From the NCBI GenBank assembly GCA_010093605.1, contig MU004199.1:868001-932000 (forward strand): a DNA stretch of 64,000 bases. The letters are read 5' to 3'. Positions 3,701 to 33,280 of this stretch are shown piece by piece. The notes beneath the pieces are model-generated. The model was not told the DNA's origin, made no database searches, and was given only the letters and a program-made list of their open reading frames with translations. This stretch comes from Lophium mytilinum. Taxonomy: Eukaryota. The position numbers and the translations under genes were made by a program. The first letter of the stretch is position 1. The number at the start of each line of letters is the position of its first letter.

Positions 3701-4807
3701 TCAACTCTGCTTCCCGACACTCTGCTCCAGCTTCAACAAGCTGCGCACGGTATCCGTAATTGACTGCCTCAACGGGATGAAAGTCATGCCCAATTCCGTC
3801 GTCGCCTTCGCATTGCTAACGTTGTACGTTTCCGGGTCCTTTGCCCCAGGCGCGCTCTGCGGCACCTTCGCCGCCACCTCCAGCACCTCCTCGCGGATGA
3901 TGTCGCAGATTTCCCGGTAGGTCATATTGCCACTGGTGATGAAGTACCGCTGCTGAGCCGCGCCGGCGGTCTCGTAGGCCCGCGCATGCGCTTCGCCCAC
4001 ATCACGCACGTCAACCCACGCCGGGAAGCCAGTCTCGGGGATCTCCTTAGTCGATCCGTTGATGAAGCGATAGATGTCCGCCGCTGAGGTGTTGAGGTGC
4101 GCGAGGTCAGTGACGCCGTGCTCGATAGGCCCGTAGATCATCGGCGGGTTGATAGTTGCAACGGTGAAGTTCGGCTTCTCCTTCTCTACGAAGTCCCATG
4201 CCGCTTTCTCGGCGAAGGTTTTGGAGGCGCTGTAGGCGACGCCGCCGGGGCCTGTCTTCGCAGCCTCCCAGGTCACGGGGTTCCAGTCGGCTTCGGTATA
4301 GGTGTGGCCAGGGCGGTTGCCTTTGGAGATGTCGACGATGGCGGCGAAGGAGGAGGTGATGACGACGCGCTTGACGGCGGGGTTGTTTTTCTTGATTGCT
4401 TTGAGGATTTCGGTCGTACCCTTGACGGCTGGGTCTAGTAGGTCACGCTCGTTGTTCTCGACTTCCATCACGAAGGGAGAGGCGGTGTGGATGACACCGT
4501 CGACATCTTTTACGGCTTCGTCAAAGGCTCCCGGGGCGGCTACGTCCTTGACGATGGCAAAACTTAGTTGCTTGAGGTACTTGGAGTGTGACTTCATGAC
4601 CTTCTCGGCGGTGGCGTCTGACCGGACGGTGCCACGGACATTGTATCCGCGTTGAAGGAAAGCGTTAAGAACGTGTGCGGCAACGAAACCGGAGGCACCA
4701 GAAATGAGAATAGTCTGGTTTTGTGGTAGCTTGCTGCCGTTTACGAGGTTCGTGATTGAAGAGGTTGCGTTGGCCGCGAGGTCTTTGGCTGTCTGGACTG
4801 CGGACAT
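3701..4807 (-). CDS. NAD(P)-dependent epimerase/aldehyde reductase (Gre2/Ari1-like extended SDR)
   Basis: Intronless ORF with ISGASGFVA Rossmann motif, VIHTASP, VVITSS, YSASK (YxxxK), NPPMIYGP and WVDVRDV. Start taken at the first ATG (MSAVQ). Confidence 0.92.
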   Translation of the reverse strand: MSAVQTAKDLAANATSSITNLVNGSKLPQNQTILISGASGFVAAHVLNAFLQRGYNVRGTVRSDATAEKVMKSHSKYLKQLSFAIVKDVAAPGAFDEAVKDVDGVIHTASPFVMEVENNERDLLDPAVKGTTEILKAIKKNNPAVKRVVITSSFAAIVDISKGNRPGHTYTEADWNPVTWEAAKTGPGGVAYSASKTFAEKAAWDFVEKEKPNFTVATINPPMIYGPIEHGVTDLAHLNTSAADIYRFINGSTKEIPETGFPAWVDVRDVGEAHARAYETAGAAQQRYFITSGNMTYREICDIIREEVLEVAAKVPQSAPGAKDPETYNVSNAKATTELGMTFIPLRQSITDTVRSLLKLEQSVGKQS

Positions 4808-5914
4808 GATGGAGGATATCGGCGATTGCAAGAAAAGAAGATGGGGTATATAACAGGCTCTGGGAGTTGGATATGCTCTTAGGGTAGGAATGATGATTTG
4901 ATATCGAACTTACGGTGCCTACTGGCTCATATACTTTTTTTTCCACCGCCGCAATCCTGACATCACAGCCGGTGGTAAGTTCCAGAATTCCTATAACTCC
5001 GGGACTACAAGCTATCGATACTTGGCAGTTGCCCCCTCACTAACACAATCACCTCGGCATCTATCCGTTCTCTATGTTCTACGTTTCAAGCATCATCGAT
5101 GCGGAGCCGAAACGACTGCGGAAACCCCCACGTTGAGCTTGTTAAGCTAGTAGTTCCAGAGCGCCGGAAAGCTATTGTCCCAGTAGTGGAAGCAGAAATC
5201 ATCCATGCTGAAGATTGAACCACTTATTGACCACCATGATCTAATTGAGCCTTCGCAGAGCCTCCTTAGGAAGTCACTCCGAAGTAGTTGATTTCAGATT
5301 TTTCAGACGAGAACCGGTAGGACCCTGATTTTAATTTCTAATCATCCGGTCTCATCCTAAGGGGGTGCAAAACTCTTCGGAAAATACCTGGAGACAATGA
5401 CGTGACTGTGGCTGCGTGCTCGGCCGGGGGGAAGATCTCCAGGGTTCTACCGGCCCGTTAGATTGACACCTAGATAGGCGATGTGGCGACTCTTAGAAAT
5501 CATGACGCCGGAGTGGTGCCGAGAAGTATCTAACATGTTAATTGAGTATTAGGGCGTATACGTACGCCCGCATTGGCACGCTATGTTGACCCTACGTATT
5601 TAAGCATTTTAGGACCCCTATCGGCCCAATATGTAAGCCCGTTGGCGCTTAGCAAATCCAATGCGGATCCACTATTACGGTTTAGGGGATCTGCTAGCGT
5701 GCCAAGGTGAAGGTATGTATACGCCCTGATACTCAATCAAGACGGTGTGACGGTACCTCGTTCCGCGGAGGGGCCGAGTAGGGATCAGTGTAGATAGAAG
5801 CGGGTTTCGTGCTTCTTGTCGGGTCGCTCCTCTGCATTCCTTTCCGAATTCGGGCTCGGCGATCAGGTACGAAGGGTTTTAGTAGCGTACATAGGTATAT
5901 TCAGCGGGATCCAG

Positions 5915-6058
5915 TCTTGCTCGCTCGACACCGCTGTGAGAAGTCGTCCAGCTAGCTGGTATACCGTCAGTCAAAGGGTAGTCCATTATCCACTGCATTG
6001 ACCTTGACATCGTATTTGATCTCGATAAGCCTACAGGTGGTCGCCAAACTGTGGCAAG
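5915..6058 (+). repeat. Dispersed partial copy of the ~240-bp repeat unit tandemly arrayed at 54.2-55.2 kb
   Basis: TTGCTCGCTCGACACCGCTGTGAGAAGTCGTCCAGCTAGCTG...CTTGACATCG...AAACTGTGGCAAG aligns colinearly with TTGCTCACTTGACACCACTGTGAGGAGTAGCCCAGCCAGCTG...CTTGACATCG...AAACAGTGGCGAAG at about 54261-54404. Confidence 0.75.
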
Positions 6059-6339
6059 AAAAACGATTCATCTCGTACTGTGTCGTCCACCACATTCTAT
6101 CCCTCTATTCATCCAACTTGTCCCAGTAACAGACCATGGCTCTGTGACCAGTCGCTTGCCGCTGCTTGGGGTAGCCCCGCGGGTTTGAGGAATTCGTTTC
6201 GATTCGAACTTTCAGGCAGTGTGATCTGAACTGCCTCTAGACCAGCCAGCTTCGCGTCAACGGGGCCGCTCGTGACGGTGGTATTTGGTTTCCAAAGCGG
6301 CGCGCAAGGAGTGGCGTTTCGGGCGCCGTTTGCCCCGGC

Positions 6340-8112
6340 CTATGGTCTATTACTGAAGGTTTGTTTATCCTCCAACCTTTTCCGTCGAGCTTCACGCCAG
6401 CCTGGACCCCATTTCATCAGCACAAGAAGAATAGGCGACGTGCAGAAAACGACAGCCGCGATGAAGGTAAAACACCACCCTCTTCCCATACTATCGATCA
6501 TTATCTGAATGATAGCCGTTCCCGCCGCTCCTAGTAGACATCTGGCAAGGTTATTGGCAGCAGTAGCAGTTGCCGGGCTAAGAGGATAAAAGTCGACCAG
6601 CAGAACGCTCATGCAATTGAAAGCACCCGAGAGCCCGATACCCATAATGAAGTGGAGCACCAGCGGCACGGCGAGGGAGGTTTCGACTTGCACGACCCAG
6701 CCATAGCAGAGCAATGCAGCATTTCCGAGATACACTAACGGGATTGCGACTTGGATACGAGCCCTTTCGATTGGGATCTTTTTGAGGTCGTCTCCACGTT
6801 TTCGGTCGATAGTGATGCCGGCTTTCTTGGCTAGTCGGCGGTAGTTCCAATCCATCAAGCGCCCGCAAGTCAGAGGCGCGCACAAGGCACCGACTCCAAA
6901 TGGAATAAAACAAAGCCCAATTTGTAGATCGTTGAAGCCGTAGATTTGTTCGAAAAGATAAGGCGCAGAGGCAATGACATCGTAGAAGGCGGTGTACACC
7001 AGGCTGTTGAAGAGAAGTAGCAGGCCGACATCTTTTTCGAGCATTACATGAAGCGTACCCAGCGGATTCGGAAATCGAAGTTTTCGTTTGCTGGCTAGTT
7101 CTGCTTGTGCTGCGCGGCTTTCATCGCGAGATACTGTCTGAGTAAGTTGACCTGCAGCTTTTTTGGCTTTCCGTGCCTCCATCCAGTTCAGTAGTGACAT
7201 ATTCCATCCTTGGGGTGGGATACTGCCGTTTCCGACAACATTCCTCGCGGTCTCGGGGAAACAGATGAAGAAGGGGATCATATAGACCGCCGACATTATC
7301 ACCAGAAACCAAAATATCGATCTCCAGCCCAGGAATTGGGCCAGCACTCCGCCAATTACAGGACCAACAGCGGGAGCAATCATGGGACCCTGAGAAGTGG
7401 TCAGCAAGTGGATAGGTAGCACATTAAAGTCACTTACGCTCGTAGCATATCCCATCCATGTCCCTCGCTCAGAACTAGTGGCAATATCTGCCACAACGCC
7501 ATTCCCAAGAGCGATCGTAGAACTGCTACCACTGCTTTGCAGGCACCGGAGAATGAAGAGTGCGGCAAAGGAATTTTGCAGTGCGAGTCCTATGCAAGCT
7601 CCGACATAAAGAATGAGGCCAATAGCGTATGCAGGTCTACGTCCCGCCATATCGGCAAGGTCGCCAAATATGGTGGGAGCTAATCCTTGGAAGATCATGT
7701 AAGATGTGAGGGTCAGGTTTATCAAACTGTTCGATACGTCCATCTCCCGCGCAAGCGTGTTCAGAGCCGGAAAATAGATATTGGCGGATAGCGGGGAGAA
7801 GAAGCCACCCCACGCAACGAGAAAGACGATGAATCGCTTTTTCCTTTTGCTGAATACGGAATAGGGAGGACCTAATGACTGAATGGTTGACAATGCCTCG
7901 AGATCTTGGGTTTGATCCCGTTCGGGTTGGTCCTCATTCAAAGATGGCGCTCGTGATATTGCTGTAGATTCTTGGCTCAAGCGACCCGTCTCTTTCTCAA
8001 TCGCGAACTCCTTAGAAGTCTCCAGCCGAGCATCTGCCTCAATTCCAAGAGCGGAGATTGTAGAGGGTATCTCTGTCTTCTCGACATCATGTAGATGGTG
8101 GGTTTTCTCCAT
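6340..8112 (-). CDS. MFS DHA1-family (QDR-like) drug:H+ antiporter
   Basis: About 12 hydrophobic segments. Motifs FFSPLSANIYFPAL, GDLADMAGRRP (motif A), ERGTWMG and GWRSIFWFL. One in-frame 48-nt intron at about 7390-7437. Confidence 0.93.
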   Translation of the reverse strand: MEKTHHLHDVEKTEIPSTISALGIEADARLETSKEFAIEKETGRLSQESTAISRAPSLNEDQPERDQTQDLEALSTIQSLGPPYSVFSKRKKRFIVFLVAWGGFFSPLSANIYFPALNTLAREMDVSNSLINLTLTSYMIFQGLAPTIFGDLADMAGRRPAYAIGLILYVGACIGLALQNSFAALFILRCLQSSGSSSTIALGNGVVADIATSSERGTWMGYATSVSDFNVLPIHLLTTSQGPMIAPAVGPVIGGVLAQFLGWRSIFWFLVIMSAVYMIPFFICFPETARNVVGNGSIPPQGWNMSLLNWMEARKAKKAAGQLTQTVSRDESRAAQAELASKRKLRFPNPLGTLHVMLEKDVGLLLLFNSLVYTAFYDVIASAPYLFEQIYGFNDLQIGLCFIPFGVGALCAPLTCGRLMDWNYRRLAKKAGITIDRKRGDDLKKIPIERARIQVAIPLVYLGNAALLCYGWVVQVETSLAVPLVLHFIMGIGLSGAFNCMSVLLVDFYPLSPATATAANNLARCLLGAAGTAIIQIMIDSMGRGWCFTFIAAVVFCTSPILLVLMKWGPGWREARRKRLEDKQTFSNRP

Positions 8113-8999
8113 GATAGTGGCACAGGCAATACTGTCGAGTTTAGGGTGCAACTCCGCAGAAGGGTTCGCGAAAGTTTAGCCAGCTGTCGAAGTAGAACTC
8201 CAGCTTGCCCGGCCGGTGGAGACAGTAGTGCATTTCCGATTCAGCGACCTCAACGGCGACATCGGCATCCATACGGTTAGCTATGTCCGCAGCTATCGAA
8301 TGCCATCGTTATTGGCCACCAGCGCGGTGCTTTACTGAAAGGAGCTGGTGGTTGCTGCCCGTTGCCGGATTGCCGCTACAACGATAGCGAATTTCCTAGG
8401 TTGCCTGCCGGCATGATGGCGGCGTCGACGATCCGGCAGGCAGCTCAAAGCCGCCCTATTCCCGTCCCGCGTTTTCTTTGCTAAAAGACGCATCGTTTTG
8501 CGTGTGTGTTCCATGTTTCAAGGCGGAAGGGTCTTGATATATTGATGAAATGAAAGGTGGAAGTTGGAGAAGTTGGGATGGATAAGCAGCTGTCAGCGCG
8601 AGTTATTGGTGGCGGCAAGGAGGTTTAGGGGACTGGGGCACGCTAGAGTGGATTAGCTTTTTGGGAAGTGCGTGGAGCTTTCTGGACACCCCAATATGCT
8701 TTCATCACTAACATGAACGCGGTAGCGCTTTTGATATTCAGCATCTAAGCATCAAGGTTCTCTAACTTTCTGCTTCTATACTGTCTGAAGTATAGAACTA
8801 ATTGGGCCGACCAGAGTCACCGAACATCAACTGTCGCTTCAATGCACCCTTAAATCTAGAGAACAGTGACAAATACACTTCAAGAAGCAGTTTATTTATG
8901 TATTAGAACAGCAAGTACATAAGATACAGCAAACAACGCATACAACATCAATCATACACCCCAAACCCCGTCTCATGTCGCACCACCCCTCAAACAGCC

Positions 9000-9344
9000 T
9001 TACAAAGTCCTCTTTTCATCCCCTACCATGATCCCACGACCACCATACCCGCTATCCATCTTGTTCTCATAAGTGGTTGTATAATCCCAAGCTGGCACAT
9101 TGTCGTAGTCCGGCGGGTTCTCCTCCTGCGCCTCAATCTCCTTCGAGTGTCTAGACATCTGCGCATCCTGAATCGCAGAGCGACGAGCTTCCTCATAATT
9201 CAGCTCCCCCTCGATAGCTCTAGTAGCCTTCTCTTCCTCGCGCGCTTTGCGCTTCTCCTGAACCTTCTTGGTGCCCAAGGCCACGCCGGCGAGGACGAGG
9301 GTGGCGATGGGGCCGCGGCGGCGGTTGTTGCGTCGGGGGCACAT
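9000..9344 (-). CDS. Small hypothetical protein (basic N-terminus, short hydrophobic segment, coiled coil, PPDY motif)
   Basis: 114-aa ATG-initiated ORF with protein-like composition and gene-like codon usage. Confidence 0.6.
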   Translation of the reverse strand: MCPRRNNRRRGPIATLVLAGVALGTKKVQEKRKAREEEKATRAIEGELNYEEARRSAIQDAQMSRHSKEIEAQEENPPDYDNVPAWDYTTTYENKMDSGYGGRGIMVGDEKRTL

Positions 9345-9927
9345 GTTGCTTGGACTTTGGTTTGGGGTTGGAATTGGCTTTGCAGAGGATATTTGAAGAG
9401 CTTGATTATGAATCTCGATTGAGGTATGATTGAACGTTTGATGATGGTTGGTGATGGATGGAGAAATATCTGCCTACCTATACGACACATTATATATTTG
9501 AGATCAGACTCTTCAAGACGCATTTACGGGCGTAAGCTGCGATATACGGGCTTGAAGCTAGATACATTGTTGTTCCGCTTCGAAGGTGTACGAAGGAAGA
9601 CTATTTGGGAGACATTCGGCGCGAGGCGCTAGGGTTGCGTCATGGAACGGATTGACCAATCAGATCTCGTTTGGTGCTACCGCACAGCCACATGCTTACG
9701 GCCGAGAGTGAATTGCGGGGAGGAGATCAAAAGCTTGTTTACTAAACTAGACAGTTTCCAGTGACGTTGTACAGGCAGCACTAAGCTTCCAGGAGTCGTA
9801 AACGCGTGTATAGATCTTCAACATTCAATCTATATTATAGACTAACTAAATACTTCACTTCATCTAAGATAACTCTCAAGAGTGGCCAGCAGCATCCAAT
9901 CAAGGCTATAAGCCTTGATTAGCACAC

Positions 9928-10776
9928 CTACCACGTAACATCCTTGTGGTCGTAACAAGCAAAGCGCCCCTCTTCAGTCCGGGTAGCTCCATCAATCTGG
10001 ATCAAATGGGTTAGTAAGAGATCAATGCAAAAAAGACAGCAGAATAGCTTACCTCCTGAACAACCCCTTTAATACTCTCCTCCAACGTCACAGGCGCCAA
10101 CCCTCCCTCCGCCGCCCGAAAGACCTTCGCACCCTCATTCCCCATGTCCGTTTGCGTCCATCCCGGGCAAACCGGCAAAGCAACCAGGCCCTCGTGTTCA
10201 TAGTGCAGCCTTCTGGTCAGGTAGTTGATGCTCGCTTTACTTGCCCCGTAGGCGCCGCACGGCAATCCCCACTCAGGCCCTACCTTCACACTCCCCAAGC
10301 TCGACGAAATCACGATGAACTTCGGCGACACAGACTTCTGCAACAGGGGCCAGGTGGCTTGGAAAAGCACCAAGGGCCCTACGACGTTGATGCTCTGGTG
10401 GTAGAGGTACTCATCGACTGTGATGTCGAGGACGGGGTTGAAGACGGTAACGCCCGCGTTTGCAATGACTAGGTCGATGCGGGAGATCGAGGATGGGAGG
10501 GTGGAAACGGCAGTTTTGGCGTCGGTGGGGGCGAGTGAGTCGATCTTAATGGTGATGAGGGTGCTTCCGGTGCCTTTCGGGAGAGTTACAAGGGCCTTGG
10601 AGTTAGATTTGGAGGGATCGCGGACGGCGGCAATAACGGTAGTGTGAGGGCGGGACAGGTACTCGGTGGTAAGGGCGTGGCCGATGCCTAGGCATATGAG
10701 AGAAATTCTTAGGGGCTTAGGGAGTTGCTATACCTCTATTAGCACCAGTGATAAGAACAACGTTGTTCGTCGACAT
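9928..10776 (-). CDS. Short-chain dehydrogenase/reductase, NOR-1 (aflatoxin ketoreductase)-like
   Basis: Spliced: MSTNNVVLITGANRG-IGHALTTEYLSRPHTTVIAAVRD...IDLVIANAG...ISSSLGS...YGASK...CPGWTQTDMG...IDGATRTEEGRFACYDHKDVTW*. Introns at about 10689-10733 and 9998-10052. Confidence 0.88.
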
Positions 10777-11599
10777 TTTGAAGTAACTTGGTTGGTGGTT
10801 CGAAAGAGATTCGAAATTTAGCTGAAGTGATAAGATATTGGTCGAGATGGTGTAGTGAGGCGTTGTCTGGTGTTCTGTGATGCAATATATCGAGCCATGA
10901 TCGTGGTACTTTATATCAAGGGCAGAATCGTAGCACTGTCCTTCTGATTTCAAAGACTGAGATGCTGCAATGCGCTCTCTGGTATCGACAGTGTAGAGGA
11001 AGTCAAAGTCGCGCGGTAAGGGAACAGCTTCAACGCCGCGGGCGGAAACAATGAGAACGCCGTGTGGTTCCTGAATAATATTAGCCATACTTAATTTGCT
11101 ATATCAGGCTATTGATCGCCTTAGTTGCAGTAGCGAAAAGCGGACTGGCTGAACCACCCCCCCTGCTCGGAGGCGTACGAGTCTCCGCACCGAGCAAAGC
11201 GCTTCCACGTCCGCTTACAAACACATCTTCTAGTTCTCTGAATTAGGAGCAGATACGCTTGAGTTGATGGTTCGTCACGAAGCTCCACAACCTTGTATCA
11301 TTGCGAAGTCCACCAAACAGTATCTCGAATGCTTGATCGAACCATACAAAAGGCCCTCAAAATGTTCATGCAAACCTGGTGCCGGTCCGTGCAGATGTAC
11401 TCTCTCCCCTTACTTGAACACTCCATCCTCCGACTACAATGGCTTAATTGACGATTCCGACGTACTCTGAGCAGATACAATGAGTTTGCATACTACGAAG
11501 GCAGTTCTAGACTTGGAGACAAGATAGTTGCCGTCGCTAGGGAAGTCAACGGGGCATCTAAAGCCATTGTACTGATAGACCATACGTCTGGGCAGCTGG

Positions 11600-11745
11600 T
11601 TCGCCACTGCTTGAGGTGCCCCCACTAGGTTACAAAGTCCAGGGCCGATGTCGAGTGTCAAGCAGCTCAAATTAGACTTCCTCTTGACTGCCTGGCTATT
11701 GAGGAGCCAGACTACTCCTCACAGTAGTGCCGAGTGAGCAGACTC
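11600..11745 (-). repeat. Inverted dispersed copy of the ~240-bp repeat unit
   Basis: Reverse complement TCTGCTCACTCGGCACTACTGTGAGGAGTAGTCTGGCTCCTCAATAGCCAGGCAGTCAAGAGGAAGTCTAATTTG...GTAACCTAGTGGGGGCACCTCAAGCAGTGGCGAA aligns with the unit at about 54500-54645. Confidence 0.8.
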
Positions 11746-12813
11746 CACACTAAAGAGCGTTGAATCCATGTGCCTAAGCTCATGATCTAGTACTGTATTC
11801 TCACTGATCAGAGGGAAGATGTTGGGACTGCGGAGTAGCGTTCGAACGCAGCGAGAGACGAACCACATCGAAAATAATTTCTGGGACCGTTGGAGTAACC
11901 GGTCGGCGCCAAGCTTCCGTTTTCAATGCGGTAATAGCCAGATATGGGATATTCAAAATTTCTTGAATGCTTGATGTCAGTACCAGCCACCCCAAGAGTT
12001 AGGAAAAGAAGAAGTTTATCCATGGCCACTCCATCGCCACGACAAATTAGGAGCATGATTAGAGTGAAGATTTTACCGTTATCGACTGGAAAAGTGAGTG
12101 CTATTCTATTCCTAGTTGTTACATCTTCCAAAACTGCTTACCGTGGTGTCCTCGAAATATGCTAGGTAAATTCCACGAACATTATGTGGAGAAAGATGTG
12201 GGGCCAGCATCTTGACAGTACCGACGCTCAGTAGTTTCACACGTTAACAGAGACCTTAGTAGTGCGCCAGGTATGTACAATGCCACATGCCAGAGGAGAT
12301 GATATCGGGTACAAAGGTTGACGGTGTAGAATATCGATAAAGAAACGCGAATCGCGTCAAGGCATCTAATCTACTGTACCTTCGGCGATAGATGACCAAC
12401 ACAGTGCCATTGGAAGTCGTCCAGCTCGAGCGAAATGTCACGCCTTATGTGATTGATACTAAGTTAGAGTAGAGGCACAGGAAGTGGTTATTTCGATGAA
12501 GTGCAGATGTCCCTGATGTTAAGGTAGATCCGTCTCTTGGAGCGGGGGCATTACAAATCAGAATCCGTCGCCAATCACAGTGCCTGCACTTAGTATAAGG
12601 AAATTTAGCGCAACGCTAAACGCCTTTAAGACATAATCAAGAGGTAGTTGCTGAATCGACATTAATAATCCAGATTTCAACCATGTCTACCTGGAGTGTC
12701 AGAGGCATTCAAGTAATTCCAATGCGTCAGTTCAACACTGGGGATATCAACCTCGCTATTTGTTCCAAGTAAACGGTTTAGCATCTCGAATCAATTCTAT
12801 TTTTTACTTAAAA

Positions 12814-15091
12814 ATGAGTACCGAAGCACCCGCCGTTCCCAGAGAACATATGGTCGATGATGGCTACCTCAGTCCAGACTCTGTAGTCCGAGACAAAAAA
12901 GCTGTGGTTATTGTAAGCAAGTAGGAGCGAAGTTACTGGGCCTATTGATACTAACAAGTAAATAGGCGTGCGACCTTTGCAGGAAAAGAAAGATCAAATG
13001 CGATCGCAACTCGCCGCAATGCTCGACCTGTGCAAGCTACCAAGCCGAATGTGTGTTCACGCATAAGAAGAAACCGCGGAAGCTGCCTCGCAGAAGGTAG
13101 TTTTCATATTTCCCTAATTGGAATTCACTTAGCTGACAAGAATAGTGGAGAGCGCATCGACAAGCTCGAAACACGCCTTCGAAACGTAGAAGCGATGCTA
13201 AAGAAAGATATCTCTTCTCAGAATCAAGTGAAGAAGTCTACCAGTGGCGACATGATGACCTCAGAGGCCCAGCGCATGTCACCACTGCTGAAACAGAACC
13301 CGATCACGAATCTAGACCTCGTTGGCAACGGCCCTCAGTCGGAAGCATCATCAATGACCACTTCAACATCATCACAGGATGAAGCTCACCCTCCGTACAC
13401 TAACGGCTCCTTGCGTAGTAGACCTAGTGTAGGTGACGTATTAAGGCTTCCGCGCCACGAACATCTTCGTCTTCCCCCCAAGGACGAAGCAGTCAAAATA
13501 GTCACCTCCTACTTCAACGGCCCAAACAACGCTCTCCCCCTCTTTCACCCTGGGAGCTTCATGCAAAGATTCCATAGACAGTACGGTCGGGAGTACATAA
13601 ACGACCCGGCGTGGTGGGCGGCTTCAAATGTTGTAATGGCACTGGCACTCCGATTGCACTCCGTGCCAGGGCTTGCTCACGAAGAGCAAGATAAGAGAGC
13701 TCAACAATACCTCCAGAACGCATTGACCGTCGTCTCCGATCTTACCCTTTATGAAAGTAGTCTTCTGGCCATCCAGGCCCTGCTCGGCATTGTATTACTA
13801 CTACAAGGCATACCGGATCCCCGTCCAGGATCCGTGTTTTTAGCAGCAGCAATTCGCCTATCGAACCATCTTGGGATGCATCGAAAAGGTTCCCCTCATG
13901 ATCTCGATATCTTTGCAGCAACTCAGCGTAAACGAGTATTTTGGATTGCAGCTCTCCTAGACAAAGACTTCAGCATCAGAACGGAACAGCCACAGATGAT
14001 CGACAACGACGACGTAGACATCGACCTACCAGAAATATCTCCCCAAGACGGCCTGGGCTATGTTTATGCGCTTGACTCCTTCACGAAGATCAACTACTTC
14101 CGCCTCCGCGTCGAGCTTTCTATCATCCAGGGCAAAGCATACAGGAACCTCTATTCCGCGCGCGCCTCGAAAAATGATGTAGACACGCAACTTTTAACCG
14201 TTTACGAGCTTCACCAGTCCCTCGTTGATTGGAAAGTGGGTATCGATCCTCGCTTTTGGGCGGAAAACATTGCGACATCCGTTCCGAAAGCATTGATGAT
14301 GCAAATGATCTTCTTGCACTTGGCATACTTCCATTGCCTAGCCACCGTACATCGAGTAACTTTCCAGAACCGCCTATGGCAACTGGCCGTAATGGTTCCT
14401 CCGGGGCCGGATGGGAAGCTTGTACCAGATGACGGCGAGTGGTGTCAATCAGCCGAAACATGCGAAGGAGCAGCGAGGTCTTCGGTGCAGCTAATGGCAA
14501 TCCTACCCATGGAGGAGCATCCTTGTATCTGGTAAGTTTTGATTCCCATTAACCTTGTGCTTCAATCACTGACATAGCGTGCTTCCCAGGATAATGATGT
14601 CGTACTGCGTCTCCGCAATGGTGATCTTGATGGCCCGGATTATTCACAAACCAACGCACGTCGAAGCCCACTCAGACTTGGCACTCATCAAGCCTCAACT
14701 ACAACTTCTGTATTCATTAGCAGAAAGAGCTGATGATGAAGGTTTTGAACGAATGCGAGGCATTTGCGTGGAGCTAGAGCGAAAATGTGAAGCTGCTTTG
14801 GAAACTACGGTCAAAATACCGAACAGCATCGCAAGTCTGGAAGACCGTCAGTCCGCGAACATTGTCCTTGGGACAGACACGCTCGGGATCCATGCGAATG
14901 AGTTTCAAGGCTACAACTTTCCTCCTTGGGATTCTCCCATGACAAATCTAGATTTGCTCAATAAAGAGAACCCTCTCAGCTCTGTGCAATTGGACGACTG
15001 GAGTGGAGTTTTTGCTGATAATGTCCAACACGCATTGGAAATGCCTGGTCTCGAAACACCATTCTTAGATATGGGAGAGTCTTTTCTCTAG
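12814..15091 (+). CDS. Zn(II)2Cys6 transcription factor with fungal-specific TF (Fungal_trans) domain
   Basis: Exon 2 encodes ACDLCRKRKIKCDRNSPQCSTCASYQAEC. A later exon has LGMHR and RKRVFWIAALLDKDFSIRTEQP. Introns at about 12913-12965, 13097-13145 and 14532-14589. Confidence 0.93.
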
Positions 15092-15748: not shown

Positions 15749-17688
15749 ATGTCCACCAGTACCATCACAGAGCTTGAGACGCTTCTCGCAGAGCTGGGGC
15801 TGAAAACGCCCATTCCGCAATTTCCAGCCGCTGATGTGCTGAGAAAGCCTCTCGATATCGCCCGTTGCTACCTCGCTGATGTCTTCTCTGAGATTTCTGA
15901 ATCCGATGTCGAGAATGCATATCATTCAATTAATGGACCGAACAACATTCCTATGGGCGACTTAGCGGTTGTTCTGCCAAAGCTCGTCCACGGAGCCGAC
16001 GCCAACGTCTTAGCGTTTGAGCTGATGCAGAAGGTCTGTGGTTTCTCTCTTGCTCAAGTTCCCGAATATGGATAAAAGCTCACGTACCGTTGTAGTTCCC
16101 TGCAGAGTCTCCGCTCTTCCTTCTTCCATTCCCGGAAGGAGTGCATCTTTTGATCATGTTCAGGCCGCAGACGCTTCCGCGTCTCTTTCTTCCGTACATC
16201 AATGACCGCAAGGAATCGTATGGTCGAGATGCGGTACTTGGCCTCCTTGATCCTTCGTCTCCGGATTCTGGCCGTAAGAAACTGGTTATAGAGTTCTCAT
16301 CTCCCAATATAGCCAGTGAGTTTCAGGGCAAACATCTCCGGAGCACGATCCTCGGTGCATTTATATGCAATCTCTACGAGAGCATGGGTTGGGACGTTAC
16401 CAAACTCAACTACCTCGGTGACTGGGGGAAGCCGATCGGTCTGCTTGGAGTGGGGTGGGAGAAGTTTGGCTCGGAAGAGCTCTTTCAGGCCGACCCCGCC
16501 GGTCACCTGCTTGAGATCAACCACAAGATTAACGATTTATTCGTTCCCGAGCAAGTAGCCAGCAAGAAGGCTCGAGATGACAAGAAAGATTCGGCGGAGA
16601 TTGAGTCGCAAGGTCTGTTCGCGGAACGAAACGCGTTCTTCAAGAGAATGGAAGAGGGTGACGAGGCTGCACTTGCGTTCTGGAAGCGCGTTCGAGATAA
16701 TGGTATTCAGAACTATACTCGCTTCTACAATCGGCTGAATGTCAGCTTCGATGAATACTCTGGAGAGTCCCAAGTCAGTCCGGAGACGATGACCGAGGTC
16801 GAGCAGATCCTGAAGAGCAAAGACATCTGCGAGGAAAGTGGTGGAGCTTGGATCGTCGATCTGAAGAAGCATGGGGGAAGAGCTGGAGTGGCGATCATTC
16901 GGGATCGTGCTGGAAGCACTACTTACCTGCTGAGGGACCTCGCAGCTGTCTTGGAACGCCACAAGAAGTATGCGTTCGACAGCATGATCTACGTCGTCGC
17001 CAGTGATCATAATACCCACTTTTCGCGCCTTTTCAAGATACTGGAGCTCATGGATATGTCCGATCTGGCCAACAAGCTGCAGCATGTCTCTTTCAACGCG
17101 GCATCGCAGCTCTCAGAGAAAGTAGGCCATGGGGAATACACGCTGGATGGTATTCTAGACAAATGCCAGAGCGCAGTAGAGGAGTCCTTACAGGGGAATC
17201 CAGAAAGGGCTACTTTGCTTGAGGTCGCGAAAGGGACATCCGATCTCGGCGTCGCAGCACTCCTAGCTCAGGAGCTATCCGCGAGGAGGGCGAGCGACCA
17301 TGGATTTGACGTCTCCCGGATGACTTCTTTCGAGCCTGGCACTGGTCTGGACCTCCAGTATTGGTACGCAAGGGTGTGTGACAGCATCAAGATCCTGTCA
17401 AATGGGGCTAGTTCTTCCGATAATGACGTGGCTGCCCTAGAGGATGAGGATGAAGCAAATCTCCTTCGTTCCCTAGTGCAGTATCCGGAGGTCACTCACT
17501 TAGCGTACAAGACTTTGGAACCAGCTGGAGTAATGGTGTACCTTTTCAACATCACTGCGCAACTGTGCTCTTACTTTGAGGCTGGTCGAGACATCCCTAA
17601 ATCGGCGGACCTGCCTTTGTACGAAGCTACACGGGTTGTATTGGAGAGTGGACTAAAGCTGCTTGGGATCAAGCCGCTAGCCGGATGA
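15749..17688 (+). CDS. Arginyl-tRNA synthetase-like protein (class I aaRS paralog) with degenerate HIGH motif
   Basis: Two exons (intron about 16034-16095). ArgRS hallmarks EFSSPNIA, HLRSTILG, NYLGDWG, FDEYSGESQV, TYLLRDLAA, MIYVV, LQY and DALR-like helices. HIGH reads QGKH. Confidence 0.88.
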
Positions 17689-19876: not shown

Positions 19877-20341
19877 ATGTGCCCAAAAATGCAGTCTAGA
19901 TTATCTGATGTTGTGGGAGACCGCTACTCGGAGATTGCGGATATCCCGCGGACAAGGTCATTGGATCTTAAGCGATCTCAGCCCTGGTCAAATGGATCCT
20001 TCAGCTGCGTCGCCCACTCCTCGCCCGTCAACGCCCAACACAATTCAGTCGCCTTCTTTCCGCCAGGTTGGGAGCTGGTCAGTCCGCCTCACAGTCAACC
20101 CCATCAATCAATGGAGAATGCATGCTGACCGCCGGCTATTCTAGGCTAAGAAAAAGTACTCGTACATCTGGCAGTGCGTGAGTGGACGCAGCAAAAGCGA
20201 AGCGGCATCAATGAAGGCTAACGGGACACAATCCAGTGCGCTTGTGGGTGGACAGGCATCAACATAACCGCAGCAACGTGTCCCTCGTGTGGCACTGCTA
20301 GATGCGCATACTGCCAGACGACCAAAGTACAGGCACGATAG
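19877..20341 (+). CDS. Small Cys-rich putative double zinc-ribbon protein, copy A (3 exons; start uncertain)
   Basis: Exons ?19877-20077, 20145-20177 and 20237-20341, with GTCAGT/GTGAGT donors, GCTGAC/CTAAC branches and YAG acceptors. Product ends FFPPGWEL-AKKKYSYIWQC-CACGWTGINITAATCPSCGTARCAYCQTTKVQAR*. A paralog lies at 24451-24809. Confidence 0.8.
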
Positions 20342-20785: not shown

Positions 20786-23072
20786 ATGAGCGCTGCAAAG
20801 ATAAATTCTCCTGGGGACTTCTATGCCAAAGAATGGGACCGGAGGTTTTCCAAAGACCGGATTCCGAGAGAGAAAAGTTCATTCGTTGACGCCAAGAGAC
20901 GTGCGAATGCCGTTGGCGATGGTGTTGCAATCTTCTTACGCGACTCTGAGGGTGCAGTACCATCGTGCAAGTGGCGAGACGTGGAAAAATTCTGCCAAGA
21001 CTCCTGTCTAGATGATATCGAACGAGGACTAGGTATCGCGGGGATGCGACGGGCTGCTTGGATTGACGACCGGAGTCTGATTCCCCAAGCAAATATAATT
21101 CACAATAACAATACCGAAAACGTTGATAGAACGGCCGTGGATGACGTGACCGAGCCGAACGGCGGAACTATCAGAAAATGCCAGAACCCGTTAACGGCGA
21201 CTGCTGTTCTCCGACACTTGAAAGAACCGGTACAGAAACATCTACTACTTCTCATGATCCTAGCAATAAAATCCTAATCAAAAACCATTTAGCGATTCGA
21301 TCATACCGATCTACCTGACGCAGACAGACGACTGATGCAAGTCCCACATCTCGAAATCTAATCATACTTAACTGACTCAATGTACGGAAATAGTTATATA
21401 CCAAATTTAGATCCCCATTACACGCTTGCACTGGCAGAAACCGCACCTTTCCATCAAGTCAGAGCTCTGAGAGATGCTATCTGGAATCACCTAGCACTTG
21501 AAACCTCACTCCGAGTGAAGATGGCTGTAAGTGATTGAGGGAACATGGCCCTACATGGCACTATGATACTATAAGTTTCAGTAAATAGCTAACTAGAGTG
21601 TTCTTCGACCATGATATAGGGCTTCAAGGGCTACCCTGTTTTCCAAATGGAAATGCACATCCCCTTCTTTGCATTTCGAGAGTACCCGCCTTCCACAACA
21701 GATAAGTCAGAGGGAGAAGGGTGCAACAGGAATCTAAAAAGACAGTGGACCGACCTATCTTTCTTGAGCGTGCCAGCATCAAAATCAAAGCCTAAACCTG
21801 AGCCAAATTACGGCATATACAAATCACGATTCTCGCTTGTCATCTGTGGCTCTGAAAACCGGCGCTGGATTGGGTACGCTTTCGTGGACCAGCATATCGA
21901 TGACGAAGACCTAGAAGAAGAAGACTGTTCTTATGAGGAATTTCAAGAAGATCCAATTCTGTCTGATGGTTCGGATGCCAATCTCCCGATTTGGGACCCG
22001 AGAGAATACTTTCTCATGACACTCGAAATTCACGTGCGTAAGATTCTCGGCGAATGGGAGAATGCAGTGTATACTGTCAAAGGCAAAATCAACGAATATG
22101 TGAGCGTTCTTTCCAAAATCGCTGTTTCACCTTCTGTATGTTTAAGCTTTGCTGACGCTGGCAACAGCAATCTCGTCACGGCTCTATATGGTCGCACGAC
22201 CCTGCAGCTATGGAGCAAAATTCGACTGAAAACGTCAAAGAGATCTTTGAGTGGACTTTGAGAACAATGAGACTACTCAGCCGTGTTCTGGACGTCCTTT
22301 CCGCTACAGTGCAGGCCTGGGAAAGATTCAAGTGTCACAATGGAGACATTGGGTATTTCCGTGACTCCTCCACCGAGACCTCTCCATTCCCAAGGCAAAC
22401 AATACAACGATCCCTATGTGCTATCGATGGCAAATTTGAGGAGTTGACCTTTCTACAAGAGAAGTTAGTCGCATTGAAGGAAACCTGCAACAACTCAGCA
22501 GAAGCTGTAAGTTTGAACACATGTTTTGGTCTTCTCTTCTCCTATATCGCGATCCAAGTATTTTACTTACACAGCAACCTAGCTCAAACTACGTCTCACT
22601 GTGGAAAGCAGCGAAACGATGCAGCACACTGGGATTACTACCGACTTCACTGTTTTAGTAGGTCCAGCTGATTTGTTCATGCTACTATGAGAATATTGAC
22701 TCTTTGCAGGTGCTTTACCCTTTTGCGCTTGCAACAGCCTTTTTCGCAATGCCACAAGCTGCTATCCCCTTTACTCTCACTTTCAGATCCTTCGTTATAT
22801 CCGTCTTCGTTATTATGGCTATGATGCTTGCATTCAAGCTACTGTTCGTCGCTCTCAGTCGTATCCTGAGGTCCTGGTGGCGGAATGCAAACATCACCCC
22901 GGTCAAGAACCTCAGGCAGTGGCTCTTCTGGAAGAGGCGTGAGACCTCACCAGCTACTCCAAATAGTTTCACTAATCAACGTACTGGGGAATTTGGAGGA
23001 GACATTCTTGAAGGGGTGATCGAAACGACTACCTACGCAGGGGGCATTGAAATGCATCCAATTGTAGTCTGA
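20786..23072 (+). CDS. Multi-exon fungal CorA-like protein with two C-terminal TM helices, GMN motif absent
   Basis: ORFs 20786-21277, 21647-22261, 22210-22671 and 22704-23072 plus short exons (DLPDADRRLIYIPNLDP...ALAETA...LRDAIWNHL) join into one frame. Contains FQMEMHIPFFA, PIWDPREYFL, helical/coiled-coil segments and YPFALATAFFAMPQAAIPF followed by a second TM helix. Confidence 0.72.
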
Positions 23073-30200: not shown

Positions 30201-31168
30201 TCATTTGTTCGTTTCGTATCTGCTCTCTTGCTCCAACCAAGTGCCAAAATCCAACAGACCCGGATGCATTTCCTTTAGCTCCGTGATATTAGCGCCAAAG
30301 CCCTCGTCTCTGAAGAACCTGAACATATACCCGAAGTCCTTGAATAACGACCTTAGCATATACGAGATGAAAGGAAAAGTAAGCGGCATGTCTTTCCCAA
30401 TTTTATCCTTGAAGATTGCATTCGCTTGCTGGAACGTGAGTTCACAGCCAGCGAGTGGCAGAGACTTCGATTTGTATTCTGCTGGATTAAGGAACGCAAT
30501 GGCTGTAAATTCACCAATGTCGGCCATGGAGACTAGTTGCAACGGCTTCTCTTTTAGGTACAACTTCCAGGTCGTCGCGAAGAGCTTCGCGATGAAACCA
30601 TTGCTCCAGTTGTCCATGAAGGCAACTGGTTGGAGGATAGTCCAAATCATGTCTGTATCTTGTGCAGAAGCCACGAGATGGTGCTCGATCTTGTGCTTGC
30701 TCAGGTAATGCGGAATGTCGGTCGGGTTCTCGAAGCTCCTGGGCCCTCCGCGGTCTACAGAAGAGTACACGAAGTGGGATATTGAGTGTTTCAGGGCCGT
30801 ATCAATGAGGGCGTTGCCTTGAGTTACTTCTCTACCGCGTGAGACCTAAAACGCACGGTTTGTATTTCGCTCTCTCGGCGAGGGCCCATCTGAAAGGACG
30901 TATGATGGCTTACCTGAACGCTGAACACGCCCCAAATGGGCGTATCAACGAGTGACTCGGCAGCCTCGAACAGGGCCTCGGTATCATTTAGATTGCCTTG
31001 AACAAGTTTGATGTAGGGAGACTTGGCGGCAAGCTTTTGTGCTGAGGCGGAGGACGCATCACGTGTCACTGCCAGAATGTCGAACTGGGCATTGCGCGCT
31101 AGGAGGGCGTTGATGACTGCACTGCCTCGTGTTCCCGTCGCGCCTATGACAAGAATGGATTTGGTCAT
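30201..31168 (-). CDS. NmrA-like NAD(P)-binding protein
   Basis: ILVIGATGTRGSAV, VTRD, WGVFSVQ, intron, then HFVYSSVDRGG, HYLSKHKIE, WTILQPVAFMDN and DIG. Confidence 0.9.
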
Positions 31169-31729
31169 GGTTGAAAGAAAGAAATGAACTTTTTAGAGTG
31201 ACATGAAGCGAGGCTGGGATAGCGTAACAGAGATGAGTAGAGATAAGGAAGATGGGACTGTGGCACAAGCATTTACCAATAACAGCTGTGTTTATGATTG
31301 TTATTAAAACGTCGTATGGCTAGTAAATATATACATGCCAAGAAGCAAAGGGGTGCCTATTCAAGGGTATCCGCCCACGGACTAATTCGCACGCCCAGAC
31401 GCCCTAGATTAGGCGGGGTCAGATCCTTCGTGGAGAAACGCGGTCAAATGAACGCTCGTTAGTTCAAGCGAAGCGCAACATTCGTGTGAGTTTCGTGATG
31501 GATGGAATTGCCCAGAACTGGTGTTTTGGGGAGGAAGAGATGGTGGCGGTGGCTGATAAATTCGCCTCTGTCACGTGACTGTCGAATCAGAGCGGGCCAC
31601 TCTGAATTTCCATTGCCCCACGGCGCCGCCACCTAATAAACTTCCCTCTTTACTCTCCAGCAACCATCCATATACAGCACAACGAAACGCAGAAAACATC
31701 CTGCCCATTGAATATACTACTCGCTGAAA

Positions 31730-32738
31730 ATGTCACGAGCAGTAGGGCGAGTACCGCACCTTTTGAAATCTCACCGCAGTCGCTGATCATACAAAGACGC
31801 ACCACCGACTGGGCTGAGGAAGAAGACGAAGATTCGCCCCAGGCCCAGCTCCCACCGCCCCAGACCATCAAGAACAAGGACGGAACCGAGACCACCATCA
31901 CATACACGATCCGCGAGGATGGCAAGAAGATCAAGACGACCCGTCGCATCAAGAAGACGATCGTGAAGCGCGTTGTCAACCCCCGCGAAGCCGAGCGAAA
32001 AGAATGGGCCAAGTTCGGACAGGAGAAGGGCAAGGCGATCGGGCCGCAGAGCGATACCACCAGCGTTGGAGAAAATATTGTGTTCAGGCCGATGGCGAAC
32101 TGGAAGGCGTCGGCAGAGGACAAGAGTGAGAGCGAGAAGAAGAAGAACAACCTGAAGGATGCCAAGATCAAGTGCCGTATCTGTAGCGGAGACCATTGGA
32201 CTACCAAATGCCCCTTCAAGGACACCATGGCTCCAGAGGGGGATGTCGGCGCTGCTGAGGTACCTGGCGATGGACCCGATGAGCAGGGTGGATTGGGACA
32301 GGGCGGATCGAGCTACGTGCCGCCTCATCTTCGTGGCCGTGGTGGCGCTGGTGAGAAGATGGGAGGGAAGTACGAGCGGGATGACTTGGCTACTCTTCGC
32401 GTCACGAATGTATGTGTCCACGAGACCGTTAGTGAAGCCTACCTGCTAAACTTTTGCCTAGGTCAGCGAAATCGCCGAAGAACAGGACCTCCGAGACATG
32501 TTCTCACGATTCGGCCATGTCACCAGAGTCTTCTTGGCAAAGGATCGGGAAACAGGACGAGCAAAGGGCTTTGCATTCGTCAGCTACGCGGACCGGACAG
32601 ATGCTGCCAAGGCGTGCGAAAAGATGGATGGCTGTAAGAACCCGCTCTTTGTTCTTCAAACGGAATACTTGCTAATCCATACCAGTTGGTTTCGGACATT
32701 TGATCCTTAGAGTCGAGTTCGCGAAGAAGGCAACTTAG
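31730..32738 (+). CDS. TIF35: Translation initiation factor eIF3 subunit G
   Basis: DWAEEED, zinc knuckle [23 protein letters not shown] and RRM (TLRVTNVSE...KGFAFV...[10 protein letters not shown]). Introns at about 31747-31796 (GC donor), 32410-32461 and 32634-32685. Confidence 0.96.
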
Positions 32739-33280
32739 ACGTGCGTGGATAATGGAGAGAGAAGATCCATGGATTGGCATTAGTCAGGCGTTCAATATGG
32801 CGTACCCGGGTAGATTCACAACGGGAGAATGGTCAAAATGTAGCGTGTATTGGAGCACTTCTCCAAAAGCCTCAAAGCCATAAGATGATATGAATTAAAC
32901 CCTTGTTCATAAGCACATATTTGTACCCTAACTCTTCGAGATGATAAAAACCTTCAACCACAACATATGACCTAGCAGTAATGCCTCTTTTAATATTTCC
33001 ATGAACCATCATAATCTGCTATTTTATAGAGCGCACTGAACCTCAGTATCGTGGTTGCTTTTGCTTGGCGGCACTTTCCGGACGGGAGCACGCGCGGATA
33101 GCAAGCACAGCCACACCTTGACTTCGCTGACAACCTTGCAGTGATGCCAGACTCCAGCTCCATTCTCAATTCTTCGAACTCCCCCTTTTTCTCTCACAAG
33201 GCTCACTCATAATGATTCACGACCTATGACCTAATCCCGACTCCGCAAACGACGACTCGAGCAGGACACCTATCGCTGCT

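Follow-up and report, generated by a model that had tools for sequence, protein, structure and literature searches.

A gene at positions 15749 to 17688 of a 64,000-nt stretch of Lophium mytilinum DNA (contig MU004199.1 of assembly GCA_010093605.1, positions 868,001 to 932,000 of the forward strand; hereafter, the window) encodes a protein resembling arginyl-tRNA synthetase (ArgRS). There is little doubt that this gene is a maintained paralogue which does not perform the housekeeping function and which belongs to a small gene cassette. Its arginine pocket is kept while its ATP signature has been replaced, and the same kind of replacement recurs in a family of fungal relatives. In the window, and near related genes elsewhere, it is accompanied by a gene for a membrane protein with a predicted CorA fold and by a mini-gene with a zinc-ribbon-like pattern; this linkage is new. 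An initial annotation, made from the letters of the window, had described the gene as an ArgRS paralogue with broken catalytic signatures. The gene partners, which were absent from that annotation, are the strongest clue to its function.

The spliced product has 625 aa and is 100% identical to the database protein P0001, “arginyl-tRNA synthetase [Lophium mytilinum]”; its translation and this identity both agree with the full-length open frame and single clean intron originally described. The exon 2 product has the domain architecture of an ArgRS, a class I Rossmann-fold catalytic domain followed by a DALR domain (Pfam PF00750, E 1.9e-63; PF05746, E 1e-14). Exon 1 alone matches no Pfam family, and the Arg_tRNA_synt_N family of Pfam, matched by the intact fungal ArgRS P0518 (of Type II, see below), is not matched by the paralogue. 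Homologues of exon 1 are found in 20 related loci (tblastn), and all 13 of 13 related metagenome loci share the phase-0 intron position, with GT..AG introns 54-74 nt long. The closest solved structure is yeast ArgRS (1BS2, E 8.7e-104 across 514 residues). The product clears the TIGR00456 equivalog model, with 280.3 bits vs. a cut-off of 261.65, which explains its database name; intact fungal ArgRSs score 427 (Type I) and 538 (Type II).

The signature motifs are another matter (Table 1). In the alignment to 1BS2, yeast PNIAKPFHAGHLRST is matched by PNIASEFQGKHLRST, with K156 replaced by Ser, H159 by Gln, and G161 by Lys, and with H162 kept: the HIGH signature, H-x-G-H, reads Q-G-K-H, and the lysine of the HIGH loop is gone. 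The KMSKS-equivalent loop, GMSTRKG in yeast, reads QLSEKVG (MSTRKG to LSEKVG, hence LSEK for MSTR), and the yeast terminus ..ERM is ..AG, the paralogue ending in KPLAG with no canonical terminal Met. It therefore departs from ArgRS in four defining sequence features while agreeing with it in architecture and, as detailed below, in the pocket. All three alterations had been pointed out in the initial annotation, and all are borne out by translation of the segments listed in Table 1. The canonical form with which it compared them, PNIAK.FH.GH, also holds, since 87 among 120 matches to a canonical-type query read PNIAKEFHAGH. A terminal Met is present in 45 of 61 canonical or outgroup representatives (20 of these end in RM), and an RM ending in none of the 120 closest homologues of the window gene.

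These 120 homologues are the best of 3806 matches at E<=1e-10, with 8000 candidates scored. All of them have the same kind of altered motif, and every named one is from the Pezizomycotina, the named members spanning four fungal classes. Position 169 is Ser in 101 of them (Lys, as at yeast K156, in just 3); position 172 is Gln in 76, His in 19, and Glu in 16; position 174 is Lys in 112 and Arg in 8; and position 175 is His in 118. The altered signature is thus a trait of the family, not an accident of a single gene. Similarly, the KMSKS-equivalent loop has a consensus in this set, S-[QK]-M-S-[EK]-K-L-G; it has been remodelled rather than randomly changed.

Selection was examined at the codon level in related loci, by the Nei-Gojobori method, from the ratio of nonsynonymous to synonymous divergence (dN/dS). 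In the unsaturated pairs of paralogues (n=5, dS 0.08-0.92), this ratio was 0.149, 0.304, 0.258, 0.343, and 0.145, vs. 0.053 for a pair of genes with intact motifs. The paralogue family is under purifying selection, more relaxed than that on the intact enzyme. A value near 1, named beforehand as the mark of a decaying duplicate, was not found, and the range of 0.15-0.34 removes that reading. The family is divided into many subclades with less than 50% identity, and some genomes have several copies (Bisporella P0004 and P0070; Hyaloscypha variabilis P0047 and P0074).

Residue by residue, the alignment shows that the paralogue has kept the arginine pocket and has had its ATP signature replaced. 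Yeast residues were mapped on 28 sequences of its own subclade, 34 other paralogues, and 61 canonical or outgroup sequences. E294, Y347, and R350 are each kept in 28/28 of the own subclade and 34/34 of the other paralogues, S151 in 26/28 and 34/34, and N153 in 25/28 and 34/34. E148 is Glu in 23 and Asp in 4 of the own subclade, and Glu in 32 and Asp in 2 of the others; D351 is Asp in 19 and Glu in 9 of the own subclade, and Asp in 32 of the 34 others. H162, the sole HIGH residue kept, is found in 26/28 and 30/34. R383 (yeast R358) is invariant in the canonical set (Arg in 142/142) and nearly so in the close homologues (119/120) and the other paralogues (46/47). The window protein itself has E161, S164, N166, H175, E319, Y372, D376, and R383. 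The exception is yeast Q375, here H400; in the own subclade this position is His in 15, Gln in 7, and Asn in 5 of 28, while Gln is found in 33 of the 34 other paralogues.

The residues that have been lost present the opposite picture (counts are among the five most frequent residues listed at each position). K156 is Lys in 60/61 canonical sequences vs. 1/28 of the own subclade and 13/34 other paralogues; H159 is His in 52/61 vs. 3/28 and 3/34; G161 is Gly in 56/61 vs. 0/62 paralogues; and R411 is Arg in 60/61 vs. 0/28 and 7/34. Replacements for K156, H159, G161, and MSTR differ by subclade. More generally, 85 positions reach or exceed 90% conservation among the 142 canonical sequences. Of these, 63 are retained by at least 80% of the members of the paralogue subfamily; 14 canonical positions are lost in it, among them Q375 and those of the HIGH and MSTR loops. 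Nearly all class I synthetases have the Gly of HIGH, and in ArgRSs without KMSK the lysine of the HIGH loop compensates catalytically. Because the HIGH Gly is replaced together with K156, H159, and R411, canonical ATP-dependent activation is unlikely, and we infer that the paralogue has given up the canonical use of ATP to activate arginine.

The structural role of the kept residues is known from E. coli. As described in a report on the E. coli ArgRS-arginine structure (PMC3956977), D118, Y313, and D317 contact the guanidinium group, and R324 props D118; binding is lost in D118A and D317A mutants; and the main chain of the arginine is contacted by A121, N123, H132 (the second His of HIGH), and Q341. 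The same report gives Phe/Tyr-x-Asn/Gln as the Add1 pocket motif, and states that the KMSK motif is missing from many ArgRSs. The arginine-contact residues all map to kept positions in the paralogue except Q341, which corresponds to Q375. The main-chain contact made by H132 offers a reason for the retention of H175 in 118 of 120 homologues.

Phylogeny separates the altered genes from those with intact motifs. A tree was made with FastTree from 123 full-length sequences, taken from the best 150 cluster representatives (50% identity) and 13 close homologues. Among the 150 representatives other degenerate motifs occur as well (FDGNH, FRTDH, FTAAH, and LNGKH), and those degenerate-motif representatives that were checked by name are all from the Pezizomycotina. 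The 62 degenerate-motif sequences form one clade (Shimodaira-Hasegawa-like support 1.0), adjoining an intact-motif lineage that includes P0121 and P0188. A tree of named sequences contains two intact-motif ArgRS lineages of Pezizomycotina: Type II is yeast-like, with ..GMSTRKG.., and includes Morchella, Geoglossum, Elsinoe, Fusarium, Xylariales, and Zopfia P0202, while Type I reads PNIAKEFHAGH and GMSSRLG. In this tree the 24 degenerate taxa form a clade inside Type I, with support of 1.0 both for that clade and for the larger group that it makes up with Type I; both trees are approximate-likelihood trees, in which long-branch effects may shift the exact attachment point of the degenerate clade. 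Its branches are about 2.6 times longer than those of Type I. From the proteins P0121 and P0408-P0526, Pezizomycotina seem to carry both intact lineages, the degenerate radiation having arisen from Type I.

Two named species have an intact-type gene beside the paralogue. Zopfia rhizophila holds P0202 in the Type II clade (its alignment has a gap across the HIGH region, possibly a gene-model error) and P0007 in the paralogue subfamily; Talaromyces proteolyticus holds P0430 of Type I and the paralogue P0045. Lophium mytilinum presumably has a canonical ArgRS as well. The phylogeny called for at the outset sets the degenerate paralogues apart, as one clade, from both intact-motif lineages. Together with conservation, dN/dS, and the co-occurrence in two species, it favors the initial proposal of a retained pseudoenzyme, a repurposed ligase, or a tRNA-binding protein, in any case probably not the housekeeping enzyme.

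A lead to the gene partner came from unusually long homologues. Four entries named as ArgRS, from four other subclades (P0124, P0131, P0285, and P0152), have N-terminal extensions of about 560-760 aa, which are homologous to each other and to the region at 20.8-23.0 kb of the window (tblastn E 7e-48). Pfam finds no domain in the extensions of such long homologues (926-1318 aa). These were considered as true domain fusions, an explanation that was rejected, with a real fusion in some species still possible: entries of the type of P0285 (Exophiala xenobiotica, 1287 aa) are read as merged neighboring genes because the same 90% cluster holds stand-alone forms of 701 aa with their own Met. In the window, the corresponding gene is separate, 3.1 kb downstream of the paralogue and on the same strand.

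The association was then sought in 22 metagenome loci fetched with the paralogue as the query and typed by HIGH motif. In 6 of the 6 degenerate-motif loci with informative flanks, a homologue of the partner lies within about 2.2 kb of the paralogue (tblastn, and profile hidden Markov model (HMM) on six-frame translations): directly upstream and on the same strand in L001, L002, L004, L006, and L010, and downstream and convergent in L011. By the same two methods, none is found near the paralogue's counterpart in four canonical-motif Type I loci with large flanks (L014, L015, L018, and L021). In the remaining degenerate-motif loci (L003, L005, L007-L009, L012, L013, L016, L017, and L022) the flanks are too short for a call. 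Since L005 duplicates L006, L012 duplicates L011, and L006 and L010 are close relatives, the degenerate loci amount to about five independent lineages, to which the window and the four merged gene models can be added. Six further pairs are likely to lie on the same contig, for example in Rhinocladiella mackenziei and Bisporella, which is a hint only.

The partner gene of the window was modelled by hand with seven exons and has no in-frame stop; five of its introns are GT-AG and one is GC-AG. The latter is the second intron, 21337-21393 (GCAAGT..AATAG), the only choice that restores a conserved RRLIYIxxLDP motif. The predicted 625-aa protein matches a full-length homologue, P0329, with a blastp E of 3e-116, and an HMM of the partner N-terminal domain matches all the larger partner exons in the window. 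Hydropathy indicates two transmembrane helices, both C-terminal, at about aa 501-520 and 530-556. Three copies of the partner are found in Stipitochalara.

No Pfam (E<=0.001) or NCBIfam family is assigned to the partner or to the other open reading frames at 17.7-29 kb of the window. The partner falls outside PF01544, the best match being E 0.22, in one homologue; the nearest ESM Atlas cluster has PF01544 in 14% of its members, a lead only. Structure prediction was more informative. An AlphaFold2 model of the homologue P0353 (alignment of 20 sequences; predicted local distance difference test score (pLDDT) 71.9, predicted TM-score 0.69) has Thermotoga maritima CorA as its top Foldseek match (E 2e-7, probability 1.0, TM-score 0.46-0.50 normalised by target). 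VIA-align, which is independent of Foldseek, ranks T. maritima and M. jannaschii CorA highest (Z 14.8, 321 residues aligned), with CmaX at Z 14.2, the cytosolic domains of ZntB and E. coli CorA at 13.5 and 13.4 (root-mean-square deviation 4.4-4.8 over 241-244 residues), and Mrs2 at 11.4-10.7; CorA, ZntB, CmaX, and Mrs2 make up 9 of its top 11 rows (Z 14.8-10.7). The N-terminal domain modelled alone (50 sequences, pLDDT 80.4) again has CorA as its top match, weakly (E 7.5e-3), and no enzyme fold is among the structural matches of this model.

Sequence identity between the partner and the solved CorA-family chains in the top rows is about 8-12%, and the GMN motif expected at the end of the first transmembrane helix is absent: the window reads AFFAMPQAAIPF (FFAMPQ), and homologues have AIFS[VM].. 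or IFS[VM][KQ]. As far as the models indicate, the partner belongs to the CorA superfamily by structure while lacking both its motif and its profile membership. It would share with CorA, ZntB, CmaX, and Mrs2 the cytoplasmic alpha/beta domain, the long stalk helices, and the two C-terminal transmembrane helices, and differ from them in having no GMN and no Pfam or NCBIfam assignment.

The sole further element that the window shares with related loci (tblastx) is a mini-gene, so that just three cassette genes recur. It is described here from its two conserved 3′ exons, with a putative 5′ exon outside the model. Its pattern is ..AKKKYSYIWQC, followed by CACG-x10-CPSCG-x2-RC-x2-C..TTKVQxx-stop; the splice donor GTGAGT, the branch site CTAAC, and the stop codon are conserved. 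Two copies are present in the window, one about 450 nt upstream of the partner and the other, inverted, 1.4 kb downstream of it. The exon-2 peptides of these copies are identical, and their last exons differ at 8 of 34 residues. Elsewhere, the mini-gene precedes the partner in L004, and in L011/L012 it lies in the interval that separates the paralogue from the partner; other partner-bearing loci end before the relevant flank. Its zinc-ribbon matches in Pfam (Zn_ribbon_3) are below threshold (E 0.028-0.37). In the ESM Atlas it resembles Ascomycota hypothetical proteins of 54-58 aa (0.85), again a lead only.

Table 1. Positions of the ArgRS-like gene, its altered motifs, the cassette partners, and neighboring genes in the window.
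Feature	Position (nt)	Strand	Basis or remarks
ArgRS-like gene	15749-17688	+	ATG at 15749; two exons, one intron; stop included
Exon 1, 95 aa, N-terminal Add1-like region	15749-16033	+	ATG and open frame
Intron, GTCTGT..TTGTAG, 62 nt, phase 0	16034-16095	+	single sense intron
Exon 2, 530 aa and stop, Rossmann-fold catalytic and DALR anticodon-binding domains	16096-17688	+	PF00750, PF05746
Remodelled HIGH region, PNIASEFQGKHLRST	16303-16347	+	translation, alignment to 1BS2
KMSKS-equivalent loop, NAASQLSEKVGHG	17095-17133	+	translation; canonical yeast reads GMVQGMSTRKGTV
C-terminus KPLAG and stop	17671-17688	+	canonical terminal ..RM lost
Mini-gene copy 1, conserved exons	20145-20177 (AKKKYSYIWQC), 20237-20341 (CACG..CPSCG..RCAYC..stop)	+	tblastx, regular expression, alignment
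Mini-gene copy 1, intron, GTGAGT..CCAG	20178-20236	+	alignment
Partner gene, predicted CorA-fold membrane protein without GMN, 625 aa, 7 exons	20786-23072	+	tblastn, hand-curated model, HMM
Partner exons	20786-21229, 21293-21336, 21394-21526, 21620-22099, 22168-22506, 22583-22657, 22710-23072	+	hand-built model
Mini-gene copy 2, inverted	exons 24646-24614, 24555-24451	-	intron GTGAGC..TTGTAG, 58 nt
NAD-dependent epimerase/reductase	3704-4909	-	
MFS transporter	6343-8175	-	
Short-chain dehydrogenase	10014-10727	-	
Fungal-specific transcription factor	12955-15088	+	
NmrA-like protein	30204-30845	-	
eIF3 subunit G	31606-32634	+	
Ankyrin-repeat DHHC palmitoyltransferase	33230-34991	+	
Open reading frame, weak GGACT match	36134-37081	+	

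What such a protein might do can be approached through other synthetase offshoots. HisZ and the HisRS-like domain of GCN2 are paralogues of an aminoacyl-tRNA synthetase that have lost catalysis and serve as regulatory modules sensing amino acids or tRNA. The paralogue resembles them in being derived from a synthetase, in the loss of the catalytic signature with the ligand scaffold kept, and in having a conserved partner; it combines the lost signature, the kept pocket, and the purifying selection expected of a HisZ-like protein. There are differences: HisZ and the GCN2 domain come from the class II enzyme HisRS, the paralogue from the class I enzyme ArgRS; and their partners are a metabolic enzyme or a kinase, while that of the paralogue is a CorA-fold membrane protein linked to it in the genome. 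By analogy, it would work most like these synthetase-derived sensors and regulators.

The best explanation is that it is a non-translational subunit of the cassette binding arginine or tRNA-Arg, a reading to which we give slightly less than even chances. In the corresponding model the paralogue would bind arginine, arginyl-tRNA, or tRNA-Arg without adenylating; as the sensor or regulatory subunit of the three-gene cassette, it would make the CorA-like channel responsive to the state of arginine or tRNA-Arg, in the way that the HisRS paralogue HisZ enables its partner enzyme to respond to an amino acid. This sensor or regulator mechanism is more tentative than the binding role itself. More speculative, and on balance unlikely, is a complete three-gene system, hitherto unrecognised and widely radiated in filamentous ascomycetes, in which the ArgRS pseudo-synthetase senses arginine or tRNA-Arg status, or forms or binds an arginine-linked signal, and gates the GMN-less CorA-fold protein, with the mini-protein as a third component. 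Such a system could have a role in cell death or defence, or in arginine and cation homeostasis.

Several observations weigh against the binding-subunit reading. Binding of tRNA by the paralogue is not assured, judging from its domains: of the 14 positions that are invariant in canonical DALR domains, only 9 are kept, and the motif of the Add1 pocket differs, reading H-x-R in paralogues and H-x-L in Lophium. Q375, which contacts the carboxylate of arginine, is His in the subfamily, so that something other than free L-arginine may be the ligand. Immediately ahead of the kept His there is always a basic residue (Lys in 112 and Arg in 8 of 120), and the loop keeps an xMSxK-like form; the site may therefore be remodelled and still work on a nucleotide or phosphate, which would speak for an enzyme rather than a sensor alone. 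The linkage was seen in few lineages, about 10, mostly metagenome contigs, and the link between paralogue and partner is one of genome position. Finally, no sense splice joint was seen in the contigs of the one sequencing run used as transcription evidence (its RNA nature is a guess), in which the spliced transcript is mainly antisense; contigs cannot prove absence.

These contigs contain three joints, all CT..AC on the plus strand. Read on the minus strand, such ends belong to GT..AG introns, so that in this sample the ArgRS-like gene is covered by a spliced antisense RNA. The minus-strand introns run from 16087 to 15951 (GTACGT..ATAG) and from 16926 to 16760 or 16725 (GTAAGT..AG), and the first of them overlaps the greater part of the sense intron. 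The contig bridging this first joint has a depth of 24, compared with about 1 in the segment that it skips.

Among the alternatives to a binding subunit, an enzyme with new chemistry deserves attention, though we consider it rather unlikely: an arginyl-tRNA-dependent or other non-canonical arginyl transferase or ligase, working on the logic of the cyclodipeptide synthases described below. Its pocket would hold the arginyl group, the arginine would pass to another acceptor (a lipid or small molecule, for example, or the Cys-rich mini-protein), and the CorA-like protein would be a membrane anchor or exporter. The retention of an arginine pocket with the ATP signature lost is what such an enzyme might be expected to show, as is the conservation of a basic residue and an adjoining His where the phosphate site used to be; and the fact that each subclade has its own conserved replacement motif (FQGKH, FDGNH, LNGKH) suggests constraint, not simple loss. 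Chemistry of this general kind has precedents in fungi, in the tRNA-dependent arginine reactions of the arginine-containing cyclodipeptide synthases (RCDPS; PMC11610942) and in ErdS, a fungal synthetase duplicate fused to a lipid-modifying domain (PMC9437257). However, the cassette has no recognisable acceptor-binding or transferase domain, the sole match of the partner N-terminal domain is the cytoplasmic domain of CorA, the surroundings of the cassette in other loci show no conserved biosynthetic core or tailoring genes, and no nucleophile motif of the cyclodipeptide-synthase type was identified. A sensor and effector pair for conflict or defence is less probable still. Here the paralogue would sense that tRNA-Arg or arginine has been damaged or depleted, or would itself produce a signal composed of arginine and a nucleotide, upon which the CorA-like protein would be opened as a membrane-damaging effector, with the mini-protein as a regulator. 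A bacterial CorA-family effector is indeed switched on by a small signal, according to two reports (PMC10600005, PMC12255297), and the loss of the GMN ion-selectivity motif from the partner would fit such a use. So would the fast evolution of the paralogues, with branches about 2.6 times longer and dN/dS above that of the intact lineage, their many subclades with less than 50% identity, and the multiple copies in Bisporella and Hyaloscypha variabilis (and of the partner, three, in Stipitochalara). There is, though, no direct evidence for toxicity, immunity, or presence/absence polymorphism, the cassette includes no NLR, HET, or other known fungal incompatibility domain, and the adenylation motifs that an aminoacyl-adenylate-like signal would need are those that have been lost.

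It is quite improbable that the gene encodes a second, specialised ArgRS that charges tRNA, with the catalytic lysine moved into HIGH (G161 to Lys) and a working xMSxK loop. The protein is full length with all ArgRS domains, it scores above the TIGR00456 cut-off, position 174 is strictly Lys or Arg and the family loop reads [QK]MS[EK]K, and, according to the structural report cited above, many ArgRSs lack a canonical KMSK (PMC3956977). Against this stand the HIGH Gly, present in 56/61 canonical sequences and 0/62 paralogues among the top five residues listed, the loss of K156 and H159 along with R411, and the loss of the terminal Met. Moreover, other subclades have D-G-N-H or T-A-A-H, which is hard to square with a shared ATP chemistry, and the gene is linked to a membrane protein, unlike the solitary housekeeping gene. 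Least probable of all, to the point of being nearly negligible, is that this is a decaying duplicate, or else the only ArgRS of the fungus. The classic signature residues are gone, and an antisense transcript dominates in one run, as might be seen in a gene on its way out; but the frame is open over all its 625 codons, 13/13 loci share the intron position, dN/dS is 0.15-0.34, and all 120 closest homologues have the same altered motif. As for a sole copy, the pairs P0202 and P0007 in Zopfia rhizophila and P0430 and P0045 in Talaromyces proteolyticus argue otherwise.

The binding-subunit reading can also be set beside known proteins. With canonical yeast-type ArgRS (1BS2/1F7U) the paralogue shares the N-terminal region, the Rossmann-fold domain, and the DALR domain, and it keeps E148, S151, N153, H162, E294, Y347, D351, and R358. 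It differs by Ser, Gln, Lys, and His in place of K156, H159, G161, and Q375, by LSEKVG in place of MSTRKG, and by the absence of a terminal Met; its TIGR00456 score is 280 vs. 427-538 in intact fungal enzymes; and it sits in a cassette with a membrane protein.

Cyclodipeptide synthases have a fold like that of class Ic aminoacyl-tRNA synthetases, lack the ATP motifs, and use aminoacyl-tRNA. They and the RCDPS enzymes resemble the paralogue in having a synthetase-like fold without ATP motifs and an aminoacyl pocket, and in the case of RCDPS in a fungal chemistry of arginine and tRNA outside translation. By their description, the RCDPS are hypothetical proteins in which no conserved domains are found (PMC11610942), whereas the paralogue has clear ArgRS domains, a full-size tRNA-binding architecture, and no conserved tailoring enzymes; the idea that it is itself a fungal RCDPS was rejected on the first of these grounds.

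ErdS and the bacterial LysX/MprF proteins are likewise duplicated synthetases tied to a membrane-related function, ErdS being fungal. According to its description, ErdS is an AspRS-DUF2156 fusion that makes ergosteryl-aspartate and whose AspRS part charges tRNA-Asp and is fused to a transferase domain (PMC9437257), while the paralogue lacks the catalytic signature and its partner is a separate gene with a predicted channel fold. On the side of the partner, a report on type III CRISPR systems describes activation of a CorA-family effector by SAM-AMP (PMC10600005). That the three-gene system is a eukaryotic counterpart of such ligand-activated CorA effectors, the SAM-AMP/CorA arm of type III CRISPR, is an analogy that we think unlikely to hold. 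No description of fungal ArgRS-like paralogues, or of an ArgRS-CorA pairing, was found in the literature searched, most subscription journals being outside the search.

Outside the cassette, the four genes at 3704-15088, upstream of the paralogue, look like a small metabolic cluster. The upstream transcription factor, short-chain dehydrogenase, MFS, and epimerase genes are not conserved beside the paralogue in related loci. The genes listed in Table 1 at 30204-37081, farther downstream, are ordinary ones.

Offshoots of tRNA synthetases that function outside translation are a known theme, and few of them are understood. The present one is large: 62 of the 123 sequences in the tree belong to the radiation, all of them named “arginyl-tRNA synthetase” or “hypothetical protein.” Since the equivalog model passes the paralogues (280 vs. 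262 bits), genome annotations over-count ArgRS in these fungi, and paralogues with similar scores will keep the automatic name arginine--tRNA ligase. The kept pocket and the replaced ATP signature offer a clear hypothesis, that of ligand binding without activation. The conserved partnership suggests a new signalling or effector module of fungi; if the link to the channel is true, it would open a direct way of studying how membrane events in filamentous fungi are tied to arginine or tRNA status.

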